Of a stretch of 64,000 nucleotides of DNA, positions 3,083 to 64,000 are shown in pieces. Position 1 is the first letter of the stretch; each line of letters begins with the position of its first letter. Under the pieces are notes generated by a model. It ran no database searches, was not told the origin of the DNA, and saw only the letters and a program-made list of their open reading frames with translations. The translations under genes were made by a program, and so were the position numbers. Origin of the DNA: a virus; the IMG/VR virus record IMGVR_UViG_3300044846_003365, positions 1 through 64,000 of that record. One strand, written 5' to 3'.

Positions 3083-6000
3083 GTTTGTCCACCTGCCATT
3101 CTGGAATTAGTTGTAAATTAATTTTTTCTGGGAAAGTTACTGAGTCAGGGACTTCGACAGAGAAAGAGTTAATCTTTCTTAAAATAACTTTTTCTCCTAC
3201 GCTGTCAAATCTAGGTTCGAGGTTGCTAGAAAGACGCTGGTTAATAAAGTCATCATTAATAATCAGTGAGCACCAATCACCTGGAGCATAAGTGCCAACT
3301 ACTGGCTGTACAGAACCATTTACAGAAAGAGAGAACTTGCCGTCTGGTGGTCTGCTTTCTTGCAAGTATCTTTCTGCGTAGCTATACAAAGTTTCGCCAT
3401 CAGAAAAATCTTCAGTAGCTTCATCGTCATCAAGAAGTGGCCATCTTTTTTGAGCGTCTGGCTCGTTTAACAAAGAGGTGTCAGTAGCAGCAGCGTAAGG
3501 CTGGCTAATGTCATCTCCTAGGTCACCAATGTTTCCAACCATAAAGAACCTAGTAGCTGAGTTTTCAGCCGACTCTTCTAGTTGCAGGTCGCTAACGTTT
3601 CCTGGGAACTCAAAGACCAGTCTGTCTGCTCCGTAGTAGGAAAGTGGGACAGTTTCGCCTGTAGGCAAGACTCCGCCAGGCAAACTAGCAATGTAGTTTT
3701 TAACGGCAGTTGGCAATATTGGAAGCAAGACAAGTTCTCTTCTAAAAATACCAGTATCTGCGTCAATATAGCAGTCAACTCTGTACTCAAATCCGTCAAT
3801 AATGTCGGAATACTTATCTAACTCTTCACCAATGTTACGTAGCTCAAAGCCTCTAAATAGCAACGGGAAGACGTTGGTATCTGAGAATCCGTCAGTAGAA
3901 AAACCAAAGCCTAACTCTGAAGAATAAGTGTATGGTCCGTAAGTACCGTAAGAAATAGTGGCCTCTTGTAGAGCAGAAGCGTAGCCATAAATTGGGGTGC
4001 TACTGGCAAGCTGAACAGCATCGGTTACGTTATAAGTCAGTGTTTTAAGAGTTGGGTTAGCAGTTGCAACAGTATAAGTTCCAGCAATCGGGCTATCAGA
4101 TGAAGCCGTACCATTAGGAATAGCGTCTGCCTCAACTACTGTCCTAGTGGAGGCTGTTGCAACCGAAACTGTGTTAGAAGTTACGGCAACAATGTTGCAG
4201 TTAGTGACGTTAAATTCGGCACTGTAAATAGTTGCCAAACCACCTACAGCCACTGTTTGGCTAGCTACTGCAACGTTGTAAGTAACTCCAGTTTTTGGAT
4301 AGGAGAACTGGGTACTACTAACCACAGTTGCAATAGCATTTTGAACGTTAAAGATTCCGTTTTGCTCTACAATCTCAGCGGTAGTGGTTGTAGAAAGAGT
4401 AGTCAGAGGTATGTCTTTATCAAGTCCAGTAGCGTTAAGCACTATGGTGTTTTGAGTTTTAGAGATAATGTCAGCGCCAGTATAAACTTTGTTTAGTGGG
4501 CTAGATGAGCCAGAAGCCGTTCCGCTAACACTACGAGCTCCGCCAGTATCAGAAGCAGAGGTAGAGGAGTAAGTAATAGTGTTGGTAGTTACGCTACTGA
4601 TGTTAAATGTTCCGTTGTAGCCACCTAGTGTCTTAGTTACAGTTCCAATGTTAGTTCCAGTAAATAGACCAGGCTCACCAGTTTGATAGGTGTAGTTTAT
4701 GGTAATAAAAGGTTCGTAAGACCCAGAGCCTTCTCCATAGACACCCATGTAGTTGTTTGGGTTAGCATCTGAAGCTGGAGTTGTGGGGGAGAAAAGACTA
4801 GTTGGGGTCTGTTGACCAACAATAATTCCTCTAGCACTTCCATTTAAGAAATACTGTCTCCAGTTAGTTGGTAGCTGAAGGCTTCTAGTTACAGTACCTG
4901 TCGCCCAGCCAGTCCAGTCTGGAGCTTCTGCTCCAGAAATGTGGGCAGGTGGGGCAGAAATAGCTAGGCTAGTTTGAGAGTGAATTCCTAGGAAAAGCGT
5001 AGAGTTTGACCAACCAACGCTAGGTCTCCTAGTCATTGTAAGGGTCATAGAGTCAATAGAAGTAACGTTCGCTAAAGTAACTCCAGTAGCTAGCTGGTTG
5101 GCAAAGTTTTGGAATCTAGCAGCTCCAGCCTCGGCACCAAAAGTGTTTGATGGATTTCCTTGGTACATAGTATTAAGTTGACCGTAGTCGGCAGCCGTGT
5201 TGACCGTGAGCCTACCTCTACCTTGGGATTGGAATTCCCAAGTCCAAGACTCCAAACAGTTCAACACTGTTGAAGCGGTTGCAGTAGAAGAAGCGGTTCC
5301 AGACGGATTATTGTACTTAAAAGTTCTAGCAGTTACTCCAGAAATTGTGGCAGTAGCGTTAAATGAAGTAGGAATGTTAAACGCACCAGCAATGTCAATA
5401 GAGTCGCCATTAGAGAACCCGTGGTCGGCAGAGGTAGTAACCGTAGTTACGTTATTTACTCTTTCCAATCTAGTGATAGTAAAGCTCCTAGAAGAGCTAA
5501 CCCCAGAAACAACAACACTACTGTTAACTAGGAATCCGTGAGCAACGTTAGTAGTGAGAGTCACATTTCCGCCAGTAGAAGTCAAAGAAGTTACACCAAC
5601 TGAGATTGAGGCCAAGTTTTTAATCTCGATGCTTCCAGAAGCACTATTGGACTGGATGTTGTGGCTAACATTAGTTGCACCATTCCCAGTATAAAAAACA
5701 GCAGTGTTAGTTGACTTGGTGTATTGGTATCTACCTATTCTGTATGAGTCAGATAGTCCTGTAACAGTCACTGTGTTTCCAGTTGTCAAGTTGTGGGCAG
5801 CTGAAGTAGTCACTGTGAAGGTAGCATTGCTACCAGTAAAGGTCATAGCCCTTTGACTGACCGCGGCGGTATCAGCCAAGCCAGTAACAGTCAGCCCCCT
5901 GCCAACCAAAAAGTTGTGAGTTGATTTTGTAGTATAAGTAATTCTGTTTCCAGAGACGGCTCGCTTGACTACAGTAGCGTAGTCTTTCATGTTAGAAATA

Positions 6001-38113: not shown

Positions 38114-38440
38114 TCTCTGAGTCCAGTCCAGTCTTTTCGCCTCTAAAATCTAGCGTCTGAGAGCCTAGGGAGGTCATTATTTCCACGCTGAGGCGACCTA
38201 AAACCCAGCTTTTCGGGCAAATGCTAGATAGTTATTTATAGTTTGTAATTGTTTGTAATCTAGAACCAGCTAACCACCTATGTCAAAGATAGGTAAAACT
38301 TCGTTGATATGATTCTAAACAATCACTTAGATAATTACCAAAGGGTAAGTTAGCCACACCAGCCCAACAGTTGGTTGCTTAGATAGAACTCCGCAGGGTG
38401 TTAGATTCAGATTCAGATTAGGGCTATCCGCACAAGTCCC

Positions 38441-38457
38441 GTTATCAAATCGTTATA
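38441..38457 (+). promoter_or_regulatory. OmpR-family-like direct repeat GTTATC-N5-GTTATA (one of 5 copies)
   Basis: About 20 bp upstream of TTGACA at 38477. Other copies at 41512, 51863, 52253 and 60229. Confidence 0.6.
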
Positions 38458-38544
38458 AAGAACTATAACTTTAGACTTGACAAGTTGCCCGTAAGCTTGT
38501 ATCCTTTTCTTATTAGCCTTACCCACCTATCGAAAGGGATTCAA

Positions 38545-47217: not shown

Positions 47218-47358
47218 ACACCACCTTTCTAATAATTAGCGTATCCGTTGGCTACCCGTCTATAATAACACACTACACACCCACCCGTCAAGTCCTGTGG
47301 CGTGTGTGGCAAAGGGGCGTGCCGTCAAGTAGTAAAGGGCGTGCCGTCAAAAAGGGTT

Positions 47359-47476
47359 GCCCCCCACTAAGTATCGAGAAAGAAAACCTTAGTGAGGGGC
47401 GTGCCGTTGGGAAAAAGTGGTGGAACCCAACGGCGGTTGGTTGCGTGGCTATGGGGGATAGCAAACCGCAACCAAG
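47359..47476 (-). ncRNA. Candidate three-hairpin RNA with anti-RBS loops
   Basis: Three back-to-back stems with minus-strand loops UCCCCC, UUCCACCACUUUUU and GUUUUCUUUCUCGAUA. Confidence 0.5.
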
Positions 47477-49362: not shown

Positions 49363-49614
49363 TTAGTCCTCGTCCTCTTCTTCTTCATCTGAAGACACAA
49401 GTCCATAAACATAATCGTTTACAGTTTCACGAGCATCGTCCCATAGACTTTCGTGGTCAAGGTCATCTGCTGTTTGGTCGAACTGCTCTGCTGTTGGGCT
49501 AGGTGTGCCATCAGCAAATTCAAAATGCTCTGCCAGAAAATACTGAAAAATAATTGACTGGTCTTTGTCCTCAATCTGTTCCAACTGAGAAATCAAATCT
49601 TTTACTGTTGCCAT
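49363..49614 (-). CDS. Hypothetical acidic protein
   Basis: ACGAAAGGA RBS, own promoter. Confidence 0.65.
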   Translation of the reverse strand: MATVKDLISQLEQIEDKDQSIIFQYFLAEHFEFADGTPSPTAEQFDQTADDLDHESLWDDARETVNDYVYGLVSSDEEEEDED

Positions 49615-51836: not shown

Positions 51837-51915
51837 TTTGTCAAGTTCATTTGAACTTTTTTTATAACAGTTTGATAACGGAAACCCCGCCCGAAAGCGG
51901 GGCTTCCAAATCAAG

Positions 51916-53847: not shown

Positions 53848-54010
53848 AAAAAGTTGAGCAGTTTTACAACTTGCTCAGGTTGTTATTCCTGTATACCTCA
53901 CCAATAGAGGTGTTTAGGAAACTTAGGTAAGCCTTTTTACAACTTGCTCAGGTTGTTTTGTTCGCTTCAGCTTTAGAGTCTTGCGACGCAGTATTTGGGC
54001 GAACAAAGCT
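53848..54010 (-). ncRNA. Candidate structured RNA with two repeated H-type pseudoknot units
   Basis: AACAACCTGAGCAAGTTGTAAAA occurs twice. Each is an ACAAC/GTTGT stem whose loop can pair downstream (TGCTCA, GCTTA). Two further hairpins flank them. Confidence 0.55.
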
Positions 54011-54013
54011 TTA

Positions 54014-54190
54014 TTACTTTTCAGCTTCAATAGCTAAAGCAGTTTCCCACTTTTTGCTATCGTAAGCTTCGTCAAACCTTTTGTAATCTTCGCTTGACCA
54101 ATCTTTCGTGTCAATCAGAAGAATCTTCCCGTGTCCATAGCTTTCGTCGTCAGCTATCCAAAGCGTGTTAGGTGAAAGTTCTTTTATCAA
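54014..54190 (-). CDS. Hypothetical protein (58 aa)
   Basis: TTG start overlapping the upstream TGA, MIKELSPNTLWIADDESYG... Confidence 0.55.
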   Translation of the reverse strand: MIKELSPNTLWIADDESYGHGKILLIDTKDWSSEDYKRFDEAYDSKKWETALAIEAEK

Positions 54191-54597
54191 ATCTTCACCT
54201 CTTCCTTACGCTTTCTACTAGCCCATCCGTCTCCAGCGAACTCCATCTCGTAGTCCCAGACCTTACCAAGAGCAACAGCGACATCCGTTGAGATGTCAGT
54301 CCAGCTCTCGCTCTCACGCCATAAGTTGCTAAGGTCAGGGTAAGTTGGTAAGTCCTCATCCGTTGAGTAGTCCCCAAGCACCAAGACTCTATCGCCTGTC
54401 CAGCGACCAGACAAGCCGTCAAACTTGTTCCAGTCTCCACCACCCCTTGCCGGTGAGGTCATAAGTAAAAGATATAACGCGTCAGACATTGAACCCTCGC
54501 AACCCGTTTGCTCGTATTGCTTAGCACCCAAGCCGAGCGGATAAGAACTAACCTGCTCTTGCTTATCAAGATTTACTAATTTGTGATACTGTCCCAT
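54187..54597 (-). CDS. Conserved phage hypothetical protein (MGQY...NLDK...GRWxGDR...GDY family)
   Basis: Recognisable motif set, own promoter and RBS. Confidence 0.75.
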   Translation of the reverse strand: MGQYHKLVNLDKQEQVSSYPLGLGAKQYEQTGCEGSMSDALYLLLMTSPARGGGDWNKFDGLSGRWTGDRVLVLGDYSTDEDLPTYPDLSNLWRESESWTDISTDVAVALGKVWDYEMEFAGDGWASRKRKEEVKI

Positions 54598-54696
54598 CTG
54601 TTTCCTTTCGTCGTTGTTTTATTGTATACCTTATCCGTCTCTTTGTCAAGTTTATTGGCAGGGGGGAGAGAGACAGGTTCTCCCCCCGCCAAGCCT

Positions 54697-56544
54697 TTAG
54701 CGGTTCTGCTTTGACAGGGCATCCGCAGCTTTCTGACCAATCAGTTCAGCTACCTTGCCCAAGCCGTCGTCAGTTGTGGCAGAAACAACTTCTGCACCGT
54801 GTTGCGCTAGCCCCTTTACCGTGTAGTCGTCAGGGGAGAAGGTAATCCACAACACTCCAACGCCACTATCCTTACAAGCCTTTAGCCACTCCGTAGCCTT
54901 CTTGGCTTGCTCGTAGCGGTAGTGTGCATCAGACACAACAACCAACAAGCGAGCGCCGTCAGAGTGCAACAAGTTCAGCGAGCCATCCAAAGCTTGAAAG
55001 CCTTTGTCAAACTCTTCTGTCGAGTCTGGCGCTGTGTAAACATTGACGGCATTTAGGTGTTGCCCCGGCTTTAGAGTCGCAAAGACATCTTGACCAAAGT
55101 AGACCATAGCTGTCGTTGCTTGAACCCTGCGACCTGCTTCTGACAAAACCCAAGCTGTGGTAGCTAAGGGATTCATAGCAGCACCCATAGAACCAGAGAT
55201 ATCAACCATCACGCCAACCTTTAGTTCAGGGTCGTCAGTATGCTTTCTAACAGTTCTTTCCCAAGCTTCGACTCTGTGGTTCAAGCCCATTGACTTGTAT
55301 GCAGCGTTCTGAACCATAGCACGAGAGCGCAACCTGCCCTGCGGAACAAAGCTTCTAATCTCTGTCTGCGAGCGCTCACGATACTTAGCTTTCTCAAGTA
55401 GCTTCGCAACCTTGACAGCTGCAGCTCTCTCTTCTCCAGTTGGAGTTCTAGTCTCCCTTAGAGTCGAGTTAGTCCCATTGTTTTCTCCGGGACCAGAGCT
55501 GTTAGAGAAAACTTCTGACGCAACATCCTTATGCTTTTTCTGTTGCTTAGAAACTTCGGCACGAGCCTTAGCTTCTTCAATAGCTTCTTCAACATCCATA
55601 GCATCAAAAGCTTCTGACAGGTTAGAGATTTTTACAATCTCTCTAGCTTCTTCAACTGCTTCTTTCAAAGCTTCGGCAAACTGCTTTGCAGCAGAGCTAC
55701 CAGTTCCATTACCAGAACCATTAGAAGAAGAACTTGATTCAGAACCTTCGCCATCCTCTTGCTCTGAACCTTCTTCGCCCTGCTGTTTCTCTCCAGCATC
55801 CTTACTAGCCTTGTCCACAATCTCAACCCAGCGTTTCGCTAGTGGATAAAGTTGTGTGGCATCAGCGTGGCTATCGTGAGCTTGGAACTCAAGCCACACT
55901 TCACGCAACTGGCTAAGAGTGTCCTCTCCCATTACGGAAACAATCAACTCACGAATAGGCTCAACTTCACTCTCGTCTAGAACTCCAGCATCAACACGAG
56001 CGAGAGTTAGACCAGCAGTAAACGCAGCGCCACGAACAGACGACAAGTTTTCTGCAACTGAATCCATATCACCAATCGCAAGTTCCATAGCAGAAGAGCG
56101 AAGAAAAAGTTTATTCTCTGGCATAGACTTTATTCCAAAGGATTCAATTCTTCCTTCTTCCAAAGTCTGCAAAGCTTTATACTCAACGCCACTAAGTTCG
56201 TCAAAAGCTTTCTCCAAAGAGAAACGAGAATAGCGAGCGTGCAAAGCTTCGTGGTAAATTGCACCACAAGCAACTGGATGCTCTAGCTGTCCCAATCTAG
56301 TATTCAAGTTAGAAACTAATTCCGGGCCAATGTTAGGAAAAGCTTTGGCTGTGTTGATTTCGATTTCGGCGCTCGCAGGGTTGAACAAAGCCGGGTGGTC
56401 GTGCGAAATGCTGTCGCCCATAGTTACAACTAGGTCGCTACGAAAAGACCAATCGTTTACAAGACGACCAACGACTGCACCAATGCGCAACCAACTAGGG
56501 TCGTTCTCTTTACGAGTCTCCAAGTCCAAACTAAAGTGATTCAT
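54697..56544 (-). CDS. vWA-domain protein with N-terminal HExxH domain (CobT-like partner of MoxR AAA+)
   Basis: YHEALH...LEEGRIE, MIDAS DISGSM, VVSD. Start ATG 56544 (AGGAG RBS). Confidence 0.85.
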   Translation of the reverse strand: MNHFSLDLETRKENDPSWLRIGAVVGRLVNDWSFRSDLVVTMGDSISHDHPALFNPASAEIEINTAKAFPNIGPELVSNLNTRLGQLEHPVACGAIYHEALHARYSRFSLEKAFDELSGVEYKALQTLEEGRIESFGIKSMPENKLFLRSSAMELAIGDMDSVAENLSSVRGAAFTAGLTLARVDAGVLDESEVEPIRELIVSVMGEDTLSQLREVWLEFQAHDSHADATQLYPLAKRWVEIVDKASKDAGEKQQGEEGSEQEDGEGSESSSSSNGSGNGTGSSAAKQFAEALKEAVEEAREIVKISNLSEAFDAMDVEEAIEEAKARAEVSKQQKKHKDVASEVFSNSSGPGENNGTNSTLRETRTPTGEERAAAVKVAKLLEKAKYRERSQTEIRSFVPQGRLRSRAMVQNAAYKSMGLNHRVEAWERTVRKHTDDPELKVGVMVDISGSMGAAMNPLATTAWVLSEAGRRVQATTAMVYFGQDVFATLKPGQHLNAVNVYTAPDSTEEFDKGFQALDGSLNLLHSDGARLLVVVSDAHYRYEQAKKATEWLKACKDSGVGVLWITFSPDDYTVKGLAQHGAEVVSATTDDGLGKVAELIGQKAADALSKQNR

Positions 56545-56682
56545 TTTTTTCTCCTGTCTCTGATTCACTAAGTAAATTGTAAAGCTTTTAGCTTCATTTG
56601 TCAAGTTCTAGGGGGTGTGTGGTGAGTGCCTAAACAACTATGAAAAAGACACCCACCCCACTTCTGCCTAATCTGGAAGGAT

Positions 56683-57714
56683 TTAGATTTTGGCAGGTCT
56701 AGCTTCTTCACCATAAACTCTGGTAAAGACATCTGACACAACAGTTCTGTCCATCTCTGGCGCAGAAGCAATTAGATTCTCAATCGCCCACTTCGTTCCA
56801 AAAGACTCGGAAAGAGTTTTGAAAGTTAGTAGCTCTCGCATCTGCGGCGCCCAAGAGATTTCGTTAGAAGCTTGCTTCTTAGCGAGATTCTGGGCAACAG
56901 TAACTGCTGGAGTCGGAACGCCAAGCTTACGAGCAAGAACCCAATCAGTAGTCATTTCTGCTTGGATACCAAATCGAGAAAGCAAAGCTTCTGACAAGCG
57001 AACACCCGGAGCGTTAGGGTTAGTTGCAGCAACTACATAAAAGCCTTCTTTAGCTTTTACAGTTCCACGCTCTGGATTGGCAGTAACGGCAATCTCTCGA
57101 CGACCATCCATCAGACCATACACAACTGACAAGACCTTAGGGTCAATAAGACCAATCTCGTCAATCAGTAAAGCCTTACCCTGCTCTGCAGCTTTGACCA
57201 GCGGCCCATCAATCCACTCGAATCCACCACTTGGAGTCTGAACATAGCCACCAACAAAGTCGGCAACTTCTGTATCGCCAGTTCCAAGGACAGTAAACAA
57301 GTCTGAACCAAATGCAGCTTCGACCATAGCAGTCTTACCAGTTCCCGGTGCGCCATACAGTAGAACATACTGGTTAGCTACACGAGCTTTCTTTAGGACT
57401 TCAACATCACTATGCTCTCCCCAACTGCGAGCAAAATACTTCTCGCCATTAGGTCGCTCATAAGAAGATTCGCCTTCTAGAGTTTCTGCTTCCACAATCT
57501 TTGCCTTCTTTGGAGTGGAGTTAGCATCCCTGTTTCTAAGAACAGCTTTGCCAAACTTTTCGTCGTAGTAAGACACTAGCTTAGCATCACCAACTAGAGA
57601 GTAGTTTTGAGTAACAGTATCTCTAATTAGCTTCGCCAAGTCCAAACCTGGATTAGCAGCGTCAAGTCCATCAAGAACTTCTGTGTTTCTATTTACAATC
57701 GCAATTTCAGTCAT
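56683..57714 (-). CDS. MoxR-family AAA+ ATPase (CobS/CbbQ-like)
   Basis: GAPGTGKT, LLIDE, AATNP, ALLSRF. Start ATG 57714. Confidence 0.9.
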   Translation of the reverse strand: MTEIAIVNRNTEVLDGLDAANPGLDLAKLIRDTVTQNYSLVGDAKLVSYYDEKFGKAVLRNRDANSTPKKAKIVEAETLEGESSYERPNGEKYFARSWGEHSDVEVLKKARVANQYVLLYGAPGTGKTAMVEAAFGSDLFTVLGTGDTEVADFVGGYVQTPSGGFEWIDGPLVKAAEQGKALLIDEIGLIDPKVLSVVYGLMDGRREIAVTANPERGTVKAKEGFYVVAATNPNAPGVRLSEALLSRFGIQAEMTTDWVLARKLGVPTPAVTVAQNLAKKQASNEISWAPQMRELLTFKTLSESFGTKWAIENLIASAPEMDRTVVSDVFTRVYGEEARPAKI

Positions 57715-57733
57715 TTTATCTTTCCTTCCTTGA

Positions 57734-58237
57734 CTAAGCGCTTTCAGTTTCGAATAGGGACTCTCCCCATCCAAGACCAGTTCTTGCTCTAAGAACTCGT
57801 CGAACTAGAGAGTTTGGAGTCTTGCCACTTGACAGCTCTGATATCTCTAGGTGAGAAACTTCTACCACTATTGGCTTCTTGAACAAAGTCCAACCCAATC
57901 TTGTGAAATCTCGTATTGTGTGGATGGAGTTGTAGGACAAGTTCGCAACGAAGAACTCTTTTACAGAAGTCTCTGACTTCTGAATAAGCACTCCATCAGA
58001 ATCTCTTTCAATAGTTGATTCTGGATTTGCTACATGCTCTCCCAAAGCCTTGAAGATACTCCAAGTCTTTCTAGGGTGAGAAGTAGAAATCACTCTTCGC
58101 ATTACACGAGAAGCGACCAGCTTGTTATCTATCCCAATTACTGCTGGGGTAAAGATAACTTGCGAAGTATAAGAACCCTTGCGGAACTCTAGATACAGAG
58201 CTTTACCAGCAGAGTCCTTTGGACTTTTTTCACTCAT
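57734..58237 (-). CDS. Hypothetical protein, first gene of the AAA operon
   Basis: 167 aa, AAGGA RBS, TTGACA promoter upstream. Confidence 0.75.
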   Translation of the reverse strand: MSEKSPKDSAGKALYLEFRKGSYTSQVIFTPAVIGIDNKLVASRVMRRVISTSHPRKTWSIFKALGEHVANPESTIERDSDGVLIQKSETSVKEFFVANLSYNSIHTIRDFTRLGWTLFKKPIVVEVSHLEISELSSGKTPNSLVRRVLRARTGLGWGESLFETESA

Positions 58238-58313
58238 AGTTGTTTTCCTTCTTTCTGTAGATTTAGATTATTGCAGACTTTTTCTGCTTTGTCAAGTCTT
58301 TCGACTAGACTTT

Positions 58314-58607
58314 TTACTCGTCGTCGTCTTCGACTTCAACTTCGACTTTTTGTTCCTCAATCGAAAAGCCATTGTATTTTTCGATAATTCGGAAAAGTTC
58401 TTCCCAAGCATATTTGTTTAGCTCGTCTTCGTCATAAATGTAGACATCATCATCTATCCAAGTCTTGTCTGAGAGTTGGACATTTCCTACTGGTTCATAA
58501 CTTATGGTGGTCTCCCAATTAGTCTCGTCATAAAAACCAGACACTTCTAATCTGAAACCATCAAGCTCGATGCTTGCTACTGCTTTGGTCTTTGTAGTTG
58601 TTTTCAC
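58314..58607 (-). CDS. Hypothetical acidic protein
   Basis: Start GTG 58607 after GACGAAAGGA. Confidence 0.65.
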   Translation of the reverse strand: MKTTTKTKAVASIELDGFRLEVSGFYDETNWETTISYEPVGNVQLSDKTWIDDDVYIYDEDELNKYAWEELFRIIEKYNGFSIEEQKVEVEVEDDDE

Positions 58608-58629
58608 GTTTTCCTTTCGTCGTTGTAAT

Positions 58630-58716
58630 ACTATAACATAAGCTACTGACATTTGTCAAATCGCTTTTGTTGTGCCTGCTGACACAACTTTTACATTGTG
58701 CCAGCAGCCACTGACA
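58630..58716 (-). promoter_or_regulatory. Two PafBC-type promoters (58630-58651, 58695-58716)
   Basis: TGTCAG-TAGCTTATGT-TATAGT and TGTCAG-TGGCTGCTGG-CACAAT. Confidence 0.65.
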
Positions 58717-58719
58717 TTC

Positions 58720-59238
58720 CTAGAAGTGGAAGTCCACTGGGACTAGGAACCAATCAAGCTCACCTTCGGCAATCTTTTTGCGAAAGTGTTCTGTGTTAGT
58801 GCTGTCGTGTTCTAGGTCGAAGAAGTAGGAATTGAAGTCCCAAGTGCCTTGCAACATATCAATCATCTTCTTCAAGGGATACAGCTCAAAGTCATACTGC
58901 ATTTCCCCGGTATAGCTGTCGAGCTTTGCTTCTAGGTCAACACCTTTTTCTGCCAAGCTCTTGCGATAACCATTGAACTCATCAACACGATTTGAAATTG
59001 CTTTTGCAATCAGCTCGTTGAACTTAGCTGGGTCATCATTCCAACTAACGATGTGGTTTGGAGAACTTGCGTAAGGGTCGCCTTCAACAAATCTTCCACC
59101 ACCAACTACGAACCAGTCGTACCAAGTGCCACTTGAGCTTTCAAAGTCTCCCAACCAACGCTGAAAAGTATCTTCGACGTTCCTCAGTGCTTCATCGCTG
59201 TTGTCAGCTTTTACTGCTACATACTGCAATACATGCAT
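58720..59238 (-). CDS. Conserved phage hypothetical protein (WxDWxVxGGGR...VDFHF family)
   Basis: MH...WYDWFVVGGGR...VPVDFHF. Confidence 0.75.
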   Translation of the reverse strand: MHVLQYVAVKADNSDEALRNVEDTFQRWLGDFESSSGTWYDWFVVGGGRFVEGDPYASSPNHIVSWNDDPAKFNELIAKAISNRVDEFNGYRKSLAEKGVDLEAKLDSYTGEMQYDFELYPLKKMIDMLQGTWDFNSYFFDLEHDSTNTEHFRKKIAEGELDWFLVPVDFHF

Positions 59239-63670: not shown

Positions 63671-63784
63671 TGTTAACTCCTTAAGTTATGGAAGGTTACG
63701 TTAACAGTATGCCGGAGAAAAAATGGCGCGTGGAGAGAGACAGGGACACTTTGGCCATTTAGAAACGGAAAAAGAGCCCAGTAT

Positions 63785-64000
63785 TTATAAGGGTTTTAGG
63801 TCTTGCTTAATCTTTCTTAAAACTGATTCTGAATAGGTATTAATTCCGCCCCTAAACAAGGCTGGCATCTTCCCCTTTTGGTTGTTGCTTCGCTTCCACT
63901 TCTTCATAAAAGCTTTAACTTTGAGAGCATGGGCAACCTCAACTTGGCCGTCTTCTGTCATCTCTAAAAACTTAATCCGTCGCCACGAATACAGGGTGTG
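63785..64000 (-). CDS. Partial hypothetical protein (3' end only)
   Basis: Open frame of 71 codons from the window edge to TAA at 63785. Confidence 0.5.
   Translation of the reverse strand, partial: HTLYSWRRIKFLEMTEDGQVEVAHALKVKAFMKKWKRSNNQKGKMPALFRGGINTYSESVLRKIKQDLKPL

Follow-up and report, generated by a model that had tools for sequence, protein, structure and literature searches.

3′-terminal hairpin loops of two phage transcription units are complementary to, and covary with, the translation start regions of the same units

The AAA/vWA gene cluster and its hairpins

The DNA analyzed here, called the window below, comprises the first 64 kb of a 79.7-kb phage contig (IMG/VR record IMGVR_UViG_3300044846_003365), whose completeness was judged to be about half. 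A block on its minus strand holds short transcription units, each with a near-consensus TTGACA-N17-TAnAAT promoter, and two successive units of this block are the subject of this study: the first encodes a protein of 167 amino acids (g167) and an AAA+ ATPase, the second a vWA-like protein (Table 1). Both units have hairpins at their predicted 3′ ends with loops antisense to the translation start of the same message, and our covariation analyses show three such predicted loop-borne 3′ elements to co-evolve with start regions in a manner specific to the unit they belong to.

No family was found for g167, the first gene of the operon, in searches of Pfam, PHROG, and NCBIfam, and its structure model, although confident (predicted local distance difference test score [pLDDT] of 85, predicted template modeling score [pTM] of 0.76), gave no significant fold match when compared with the Protein Data Bank (PDB) by Foldseek. 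Its position before the AAA gene is conserved, with a tblastn match in 74 of 80 relative loci, and the gene order g167-AAA-vWA is maintained in nearly all of these 80 loci. The AAA protein contains an AAA_5 domain (E value of 2.4e-21, 76.6 bits versus a cut-off of 22), and its PHROG match is annotated as ATPase / porphyrin biosynthesis. Assignment of the vWA protein is less direct: the match to Pfam VWA_CoxE (E value of 0.0036, 17.2 bits) stays below the cut-off of 26.4, NCBIfam and the sequences of the PDB gave no match, and the translation shows D-I-S-G-S (DxSGS), a motif of the metal ion-dependent adhesion site (MIDAS) type. Its homologue in phage DSL-LC01 carries the annotation "cobalamin biosynthesis protein." DSL-LC01, an Actinomycetia phage from a lake, is the sole relative among named phages (67.5% DNA identity across the AAA and vWA genes); it was the only hit of a distant search of phage records, in which megablast gave no match. 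The window sequence also recurs in lake-water metagenomes; among the sequencing runs listed for it, none is an RNA run, a result with no bearing on its expression. The virus is freshwater and actinophage-like.

Each of the two terminal hairpins is immediately followed by a strong TTGACA-N17-TAnAAT promoter, that of the next unit, and therefore, we take them as the 3′ ends of two successive units. The same arrangement into two consecutive units had been proposed in a preliminary description, made from the letters of the window alone, and is borne out by the promoter that directly follows each hairpin. Transcript ends are, throughout this text, ends predicted from promoters and hairpins; for unit 1, the predicted 5′ untranslated region (UTR) is ~23 nt long. 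An Rfam scan of positions 54000-58800 returned only three sub-threshold chance matches, none of them on the hairpins.

Table 1. Positions in the window of the genes, promoters, hairpins, and start-region targets of the two units (SD, Shine-Dalgarno sequence)
Feature	Positions	Strand	Basis or remark
Promoter of transcription unit 1	58267..58295	-	TTGACA-17-AATAAT; consensus scan, 11/12 matches
Target 1, AAACAACUAUGA, spacer + AUG + 1 nt of g167	58234..58245	-	exact 12-nt complement of hairpin-1 loop
g167, first gene of the operon, 167 aa	57734..58237	-	open reading frame list; ATG 58237-58235; stop codon 57736-57734
AAA SD, GGAAGGA	57723..57729	-	9 nt upstream of AUG, just after g167 stop codon
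AAA+ ATPase gene, AAA_5 / MoxR-CobS-like, 343 aa	56683..57714	-	Pfam PF07728
Stop-codon hairpin	56666..56694	-	local fold
Hairpin 1, terminal hairpin of unit 1	56617..56661	-	fold -22 to -26 kcal/mol
Promoter of transcription unit 2	56576..56604	-	TTGACA-17-TACAAT; consensus scan
Target 2, AGAGACAGG, vWA 5′ UTR -17 to -9	56553..56561	-	overlaps AGG, start of AGGAG SD
vWA / CobT-like gene, 615 aa	54697..56544	-	weak Pfam match + motif + DSL-LC01 homologue annotation
Hairpin 2, terminal hairpin of unit 2	54655..54692	-	fold -26 to -28 kcal/mol, z -2.8
Promoter of next unit	54621..54649	-	TTGACA-17-TACAAT; marks end of unit 2

Hairpin 1, located after the AAA gene, has an 11-bp core stem with additional outer pairs and a 15-nt loop, UUUUCAUAGUUGUUU (56646-56632). 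The loop contains the complete 12-mer UCAUAGUUGUUU (56643-56632), which is antisense to target 1; the target reads AAACAACTATGA (58245-58234) and spans positions -8 to +4 of g167. This 12-nt complement to the start codon region of the operon had been noticed in the preliminary description; it is exact and, in a pattern search, unique in the window, and if up to one mismatch is allowed, 4 matches are found versus 0.47 expected. The further claim that the G-U pairs of this hairpin favor the minus strand also agrees with our folds, since the mRNA (minus) strand folds into this hairpin with an advantage of 6 kcal/mol over the other strand. In loop shuffling, a complement of at least 12 nt arose in 27 of 200,000 trials per pair of a loop and a translation initiation region (TIR) (1.35e-4), and the 12-mer holds up alone after allowing for the 20 to 30 hairpins that a reader could have screened.

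The 14 bp of hairpin 2, after the vWA gene, close a 9-nt loop, ACCUGUCUC (54678-54670), which contains 8 of the 9 matched bases. The full antisense sequence, CCUGUCUCU (54677-54669), is the exact complement of target 2 (56561-56553), and the earlier statement that a 9-nt complement overlaps the SD of the vWA gene itself is correct, with the complement seated in a strong minus-strand hairpin. Unlike hairpin 1, this hairpin is not more stable on the mRNA strand. The 9-mer occurs three times in the window (0.82 expected; 6 of 100 shuffles reach 3), and complements of at least 9 nt arose in 238 of 200,000 loop shufflings per loop/TIR pair (1.2e-3). It is therefore borderline, and within this genome alone, it fails multiple testing. 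As a separate observation, the third copy of CCTGTCTCT lies at 63700-63765 on the minus strand, within CCCTGTCTCTCTCC after a gene ending at 63785. AATGGC/GCCATT closes the long loop around this copy, and a T-run comes next; the element may represent another RNA with the capacity to pair with the vWA start region, or a chance occurrence.

A third element, absent from the preliminary description, is the strongest one of the first operon. The last codons of the AAA gene and the first base of its UAA stop codon (56685-56683) pair with downstream AGAUU..GGC to form a stop-codon hairpin, and its 10-nt loop bears the anti-SD UCCUUCC. In the DNA, the tail TCCTTCC (56681-56675) thus faces the AAA SD GGAAGGA (57729-57723). 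Together with hairpin 1, this gives unit 1 a nested layout, start(g167) ... start(AAA) ... anti-start(AAA) - anti-start(g167).

As terminators, hairpins 1 and 2 are unusual. Both have GC-rich stems at the unit end (14 to 16 bp, -22 to -28 kcal/mol) directly before a promoter, but their loops of 15 and 9 nt exceed the usual 3 to 8 nt, no T-run follows the stems, and a terminator consensus scan does not list either of them. U-less terminators are known in Actinobacteria, and therefore, a terminator function remains compatible with both structures. Two other roles for the loops were considered and rejected. An opposite-strand small open reading frame starting from the ATG in the loop would have only 20 codons, has no SD, and has no ATG at this place in relatives; antitermination, in which the start region would compete with the terminator stem, does not fit because the complement resides in the loops and not in the 5′ arm of the stem.

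Covariation of loops and start regions in related phages

To follow the elements through related phages, a search with the back-translated AAA protein yielded 80 IMG/VR loci with 56 to 75% protein identity, of which 35, including the window, are non-redundant (set 1); a second search seeded with a divergent alignment found 265 relatives and added 28 non-redundant loci unlike those of set 1 (replication set). Most relatives have a GC-rich hairpin followed by a promoter between AAA and vWA, with widely differing hairpin sequences, and in 28/35 and 27/35 loci of set 1, the mRNA strand gives the more stable hairpin. After AAA, loops and start regions match as CATTGGGTGTC versus GACACCCAATG in L058 (11 nt including the AUG), CTGGGTGTTT versus AAACACCCAG in L078, and TAGGTGTCC versus GGACACCTA in L044. 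The loops after vWA reach 27 nt, ordinary terminator loops being far smaller, and contain complements of up to 14 nt to the SD region of their own vWA gene: TTGTTTGTCCTTTG versus CAAAGGACAAACAA in L046 (14 nt), TTCCGTTCCTTTC versus GAAAGGAACGGAA in L034 (13 nt), ATCCTTCCGTCAG versus CTGACGGAAGGAT in L042 (13 nt), and CCTTTCCAAAA versus TTTTGGAAAGG in L004 (11 nt). Between L036 and L046, compensatory changes are present on both the loop and the start side.

The stop-codon hairpin behaves in the same way. In relatives, the 8 to 12 nt directly after the AAA stop are complementary to the SD of the same AAA gene, and both sides vary together, with tail and SD region reading TAGTCTCCTTCC and GGAAGGAGACTA in L010, TTTCCGTCC and GGACGGAAA in L004, ACTCCTTGG and CCAAGGAGT in L038, CTCCCTGTG and CACAGGGAG in L058, GTCCATCC and GGATGGAC in L063, and TTCCGTTC and GAACGGAA in L014. 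Three segments build the stem: the last AAA codons, which encode a conserved ...A-K-I terminus; the stop codon, in whole or in part; and the adjacent downstream sequence. A perfect complement of at least 6 nt between the last 12 nt plus stop and the next 35 nt is present in 42 of the 63 non-redundant loci versus 10.5% of shuffles; this measure replaced a looser first one, which 77% of shuffles had passed. Nothing comparable was found at the vWA and g167 stops of the 63 loci. One clade (L055, L066, and L075) has kept the stop-codon hairpin with the anti-SD loop absent, and in L035, the loop matches both upstream SDs.

In set 1, we compared the mean longest Watson-Crick complement between a 3′ element and the start region of its own locus with that to the start regions of other loci and assessed the difference by permutation. 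The tail after the AAA stop matched its own AAA start over 6.74 nt versus 4.83 nt for others (at least 8 nt in 14/35 loci versus 2.7%), the AAA-terminal hairpin zone matched its own g167 start over 6.71 versus 5.34 nt (at least 8 nt in 10/35 versus 4.7%), and the vWA hairpin matched its own vWA start over 8.23 versus 5.57 nt (at least 8 nt in 21/35 versus 9%), with a permutation p of ≤2e-4 for each of the three main pairings. Duplex energies followed the same trend (own versus other, -13.8 versus -9.3, -14.2 versus -12.6, and -17.6 versus -13.6 kcal/mol). Pairings of a 3′ element with the start of the other unit were not significant, neither for stop-tail with vWA, AAA hairpin with vWA, or vWA hairpin with AAA (p of 0.13 to 0.98) nor for vWA hairpin with g167. 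Secondary pairings within the same unit were weakly enriched, namely, stop-tail with the g167 TIR, the SDs of g167 and AAA often being identical, and hairpin zone with the AAA TIR (p of 0.008). In a direct-repeat control, which looks for matches in the same orientation, at least 8 nt were reached in 0 to 1 locus for the main pairs and in at most 2 loci for any pairing.

The signal resides in the loops and extends beyond the SD core. With only the loop plus 2 nt considered, it persisted (7.09 versus 4.66 and 5.69 versus 4.04, p of 1e-4). When the sequences were anchored on the GGA/TCC core, 5.3 to 5.8 of 10 flanking positions paired in cognates versus 3.5 to 4.1 in non-cognates (p of 1e-4); flank positions +3 to +6 were paired in 47 to 83% of cognates versus 28 to 53% of permuted combinations (for vWA, 74 to 83% at +3 to +5) and displayed 3 to 4 pair types per position. 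Since the flanks beyond the core covary, the complementarity is more than mimicry of the 16S anti-SD. A comparison of sense and antisense duplex energies for G-U pairs was uninformative, as non-cognates show an equal composition bias.

All three main results were reproduced in the replication set (p of 1e-4 each), and the cross pairings were again not significant. Furthermore, we built a tree of 63 AAA proteins, chose 31 sister pairs on non-overlapping paths, and swapped their partners. Own combinations beat swapped ones by 17:1 (p of 7e-5), 18:2 (p of 2e-4), and 17:3 (p of 1.3e-3), with the cross controls not significant (8:12, 12:8, and 9:12), and therefore, relatedness does not explain the signal. 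As an internal control, complements of at least 8 nt were found at 4% of 228 other gene ends before a gap, compared to 56% for AAA and 59% for vWA. The check suggested in the preliminary description, whether loops and start regions covary among related phages, is hence positive for both hairpins and specific to the cognate unit. At the level of sequence comparison, the reading of both 3′ loops as antisense to the translation start of their own mRNA, in a complementarity selected between RNAs, holds, and the elements very probably pair as RNA in the lake phage and in ~60 distinct relatives. Four lake-metagenome contig sets were uninformative in this respect: they contained one 98%-identical contig, and among the differences listed, none falls in the loops or targets.

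Some further features of the relatives may be mentioned beside these results. L042 carries an inserted gene for tRNA-Met (CAT) at 5053-5127, behind the post-AAA hairpin and ahead of the vWA promoter. In L038, L044, L050, L058, and L065, the post-AAA loop contains the motif TAGGTG/TGGGTG, with the complement CACCTA/CACCCA in the g167 leader; the same complement is also found in the spacer of the downstream vWA promoter, a place represented only in read-through RNA or at the DNA level. A repeated motif of the type GTTATCAnnnnGTTATAAAAAA occurs just upstream of some promoters (in the window at ~51860-51880 on the minus and 38440-38470 on the plus strand), its position is conserved in distant relatives (upstream of g167 in L027, L034, and L045), and it may be a candidate protein-binding site.

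Proposed mode of action and alternatives

We propose that two successive early or middle units carry 3′-terminal hairpins with loops antisense to the start regions of the same message. Unit 1 would be a nested double lock, with the stop-codon hairpin directed to the AAA SD and the terminal loop to the spacer and AUG of g167, and unit 2 would have a single terminal hairpin with a loop directed to the SD region of vWA. With transcription of the 3′ end completed, the loops could pair with the short, purine-rich, and mostly unstructured 5′ start regions; pairing would compete with the 30S subunit and result in fewer rounds of translation and, probably, a shorter lifetime of the message. Consistent with this, the targets lie in 5′ UTRs of ~25 nt and are mostly unpaired locally (unpaired fraction of 0.69 to 0.70 on both sides), and the loop-to-single-strand duplexes predicted in the window amount to -14.5 to -15.8 kcal/mol. 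A typical SD/anti-SD contact should be comparable or weaker, and hence, the duplexes should be able to compete with 30S binding. Because the antisense parts are made last, translation could begin during transcription and be limited afterwards, following a fold-back logic.

Repression of translation is plausible by analogy, given the position of the pairing on SD and AUG and the work on icaR and on anti-ribosome-binding site (anti-RBS) reporters discussed below. Of the reading in the preliminary description that finished transcripts silence themselves, the antisense relation of loop and own start and its co-evolution thus stand, while silencing is suggested by the target (SD, spacer, and AUG) and by other systems; for the idea that the AAA and vWA proteins are potentially toxic, we found nothing in support. 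More speculatively, the tail of unit 1 may act as a ribosome-gated switch, that is, a sensor of translation history or a timer in a phage mRNA, a notion to which we give a small chance. A ribosome terminating at the AAA stop would melt the stop-codon hairpin and cover the anti-SD, and a ribosome terminating at the g167 stop would free the AAA SD, which follows directly. The message would stay open while ribosomes arrive; upon a lapse, the AAA SD would be locked and then, by the terminal loop, the first start codon.

Could the complementarity have no RNA-RNA function at all and reflect chance, mimicry of the 16S anti-SD, loop motifs bound by proteins (UAGGUG/UGGGUG), or inverted repeats acting as DNA? 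The 9-mer taken alone is near chance level, many loops hold generic CCUUCC/CCUUUC, and the UAGGUG/UGGGUG motif recurs across clades. However, the complementarity exceeds the SD core and covaries through several pair types per position, it is cognate-specific in the permutation and sister-pair tests and orientation-specific, with empty direct-repeat controls, it is absent from the 228 other gene ends, and the hairpins are preferentially stable on the mRNA strand. This explanation appears largely refuted by the comparative tests, and we consider it very improbable. A positive role would accept the pairing and reverse its effect: contact of the two ends could shield the 5′ UTR from RNases that depend on the 5′ end, or aid re-initiation, so that the message is stabilized or boosted. 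The pairing of 5′ and 3′ UTR in hbs does stabilize its mRNA (PMC5737220), no more than ~25 nt separate the targets from the predicted 5′ ends, and the anti-SD is located directly at the AAA stop codon. Since the pairing covers SD, spacer, and AUG, which should exclude the 30S subunit, and since an anti-RBS in the 3′ UTR lowered expression where this was tested (PMC12697547, PMC3868564), we regard a positive role as improbable.

A further alternative concerns the site of action. GC-rich 3′ hairpins might survive decay as stable small RNAs and titrate the start regions of new messages in trans, which would result in delayed negative feedback or a shut-off of early genes and could perhaps hit other leaders as well, such as AAACAACUACGA before the gene at 49614, which the hairpin-1 loop matches at 11 of 12 positions. 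Loops on very stable stems are a typical design of antisense RNAs and of Gram-positive small RNAs (sRNAs) with C-rich loops, the matched leader is that of another early unit, the genome has a free-standing RNA of three hairpins with anti-RBS-like loops, relatives have a hairpin loop directed against a generic leader, AAACGACGAAAGG, that precedes many genes, and full-length folds do not favor the helix in cis. On the other hand, the loops covary only with their own unit, for which action in cis is the simplest explanation, and nothing obvious would protect the stop-codon hairpin if it existed as a separate RNA; action in trans therefore seems to us unlikely, if less so than a positive role.

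The free-standing RNA lies at 47310-47476 on the minus strand of the window and consists of three adjacent strong hairpins (minimum free energy [MFE] of -68.7 kcal/mol, z of -5.7) with two long pyrimidine-rich loops, UUCCACCACUUUUU and GGUUUUCUUUCUCGAUA, that resemble anti-RBS sequences. Several early units of the window share the leader AAAACAAC(G/T)ACGAAAGGAAA (at ~58630, 54600, 49640, and 44170, minus strand). L041 (2740-2765) and L044 (2685-2710) have, behind a different gene, a hairpin with TTCGTCGTTTCC as its loop; the complement of this loop is the generic leader, which precedes at least five genes in each of the two loci.

In our opinion, the best explanation of the whole is that the 3′-terminal loops pair with their own start regions and limit translation, mainly in cis, and we hold this to be rather probable. 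Several observations weigh against it. Both hairpins of the window have no U-tract, and termination there follows only from the promoter behind them; the 9-nt loop of hairpin 2 cannot make all 9 pairs without strain. The match of the hairpin-1 loop to g167 is absent in the closest relatives of the window (L003, L008-L012, and L016-L026), and about one-third of the loci have no vWA loop match and a plain tetraloop terminator instead; the elements have thus been gained and lost. Full-length MFE folds of unit 1 contain the helix of AAA SD and tail in 1/35 loci, although such folds are weak for RNAs of 1.6 kb and cannot represent loop-to-strand (pseudoknot) pairing. In this genome, the own start region ranks 3rd, 6th, and 3rd by duplex energy among 126 candidate targets. 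Finally, transcript ends, pairing, and effect are all predicted.

An instructive exception is L057, in which the three genes form one unit with no internal promoter: the matches of its single terminal loop, CTTATCCTTTC, are to the start regions of AAA (11 nt) and g167 (10 nt), with none to the coupled vWA start. Within the phage itself, the arrangement is restricted to the units described here. A genome-wide scan of this phage for self-complementary 3′ ends, in line with a check named in the preliminary description, revealed no further ones, and the idea that all long-loop terminators pair with their own message was rejected on this basis; the other terminators of this phage are ordinary short-loop (tetraloop) hairpins with no self-match.

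Relation to known systems and implications

Literature searches gave no description of such 5′-3′ elements in phages, and we regard those found here as the phage form of a known control by pairing of 5′ and 3′ UTRs. Fold-back in the hok/sok system, offered only as an analogy in the preliminary description, joins the 5′ translational region to the 3′ end of the full-length mRNA (fbi-tac pairing) and keeps the finished transcript silent. The phage units share with hok the 3′ end directed against the own 5′ translational region. Unlike hok, they encode a 167-aa protein, an AAA+ ATPase, and a 615-aa vWA-like protein and no member of a toxin family, there is no evidence of an activating 3′ processing, and no antisense promoter/terminator unit was seen in a consensus scan of the locus. 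In lambda int/sib and T7 gene 1.2, a downstream RNA site reportedly sets the expression of the upstream gene and is said to act by RNase III cleavage and entry of 3′ exonucleases, or by removal of an inhibitory 3′ segment. The two cases are referenced in PMC3074117 (Schmeissner et al. 1984; Saito and Richardson 1981). For lambda sib, the element at the 3′ side is not known to copy the SD of its own gene in antisense, whereas the elements described here are antisense to start regions of their own unit.

A close counterpart is icaR of Staphylococcus aureus (PMC3868564; Ruiz de los Mozos et al. 2013). There, the SD is paired to an anti-SD located in the 3′ UTR of its own mRNA, with the effect that initiation is blocked and a substrate for RNase III arises. 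As in icaR, the phage units have an anti-SD motif opposite the SD of the same mRNA, the elements sit between the stop codon and the next promoter and thus in the 3′ UTR (with transcript ends as predicted), and the complementarity to the own SD or start is specific, as seen in the cognate tests, the flanks, the replication set, and the sister pairs. The differences are in architecture: icaR is a single bacterial gene with a 3′ UTR of >100 nt and one UCCCCUG motif, whereas the phage 3′ UTRs measure ~40 to 80 nt and present the antisense sequences in hairpin loops (terminal and at the stop codon), as two nested locks with a third one in the next unit. The phage elements rest on covariation, icaR on experiment.

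Reporter studies in Bacillus subtilis also speak to the effect. When anti-RBS 8-mers are placed within a coding sequence or a 3′ UTR, both translation and the amount of mRNA drop (PMC12697547; Gill et al. 2025 preprint), and even from hundreds of nucleotides downstream, anti-RBS sequences pair with the RBS, speed up decay, and block translation, with a strength set by the context (PMC12697547). Those 8-mers are synthetic and depleted from natural genes, whereas the phage sequences are retained and co-evolving, which argues for selection for the interaction. In hbs of B. subtilis, the two mRNA ends pair as well and hide an RNase Y site, stabilizing the message (PMC5737220; Braun et al. 2017), but that pairing leaves the SD uncovered. 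A loop as functional surface is known from the sRNAs RsaE/RoxS, with their C-rich loops, and from the terminator loops of an sRNA acting on fepA (PMC11979758). The pyrimidine-rich loops of RsaE/RoxS are aimed at SD regions like those of the phage, but they belong to separate, trans-acting sRNAs with several targets; in the case of fepA, base pairing is probably not the way in which the terminator loops act (PMC11979758).

In sum, only a few bacterial mRNAs, each of a single gene, are known to have their two ends joined by base pairing (icaR and hbs), and a recent reporter screen suggests that anti-RBS sequences are potent wherever they lie in a message and are normally avoided. Here, such sequences are kept at three places of one gene cluster, in loops, and have co-evolved through dozens of variants. 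This suggests a phage strategy to dose or time the AAA+/vWA protein pair. Unusually large terminator loops and stop-codon hairpins, which are currently ignored by genome annotation, can be regulatory surfaces, and a large group of uncultured lake phages offers a natural set of compensatory mutants for long-range self-regulation of mRNA.

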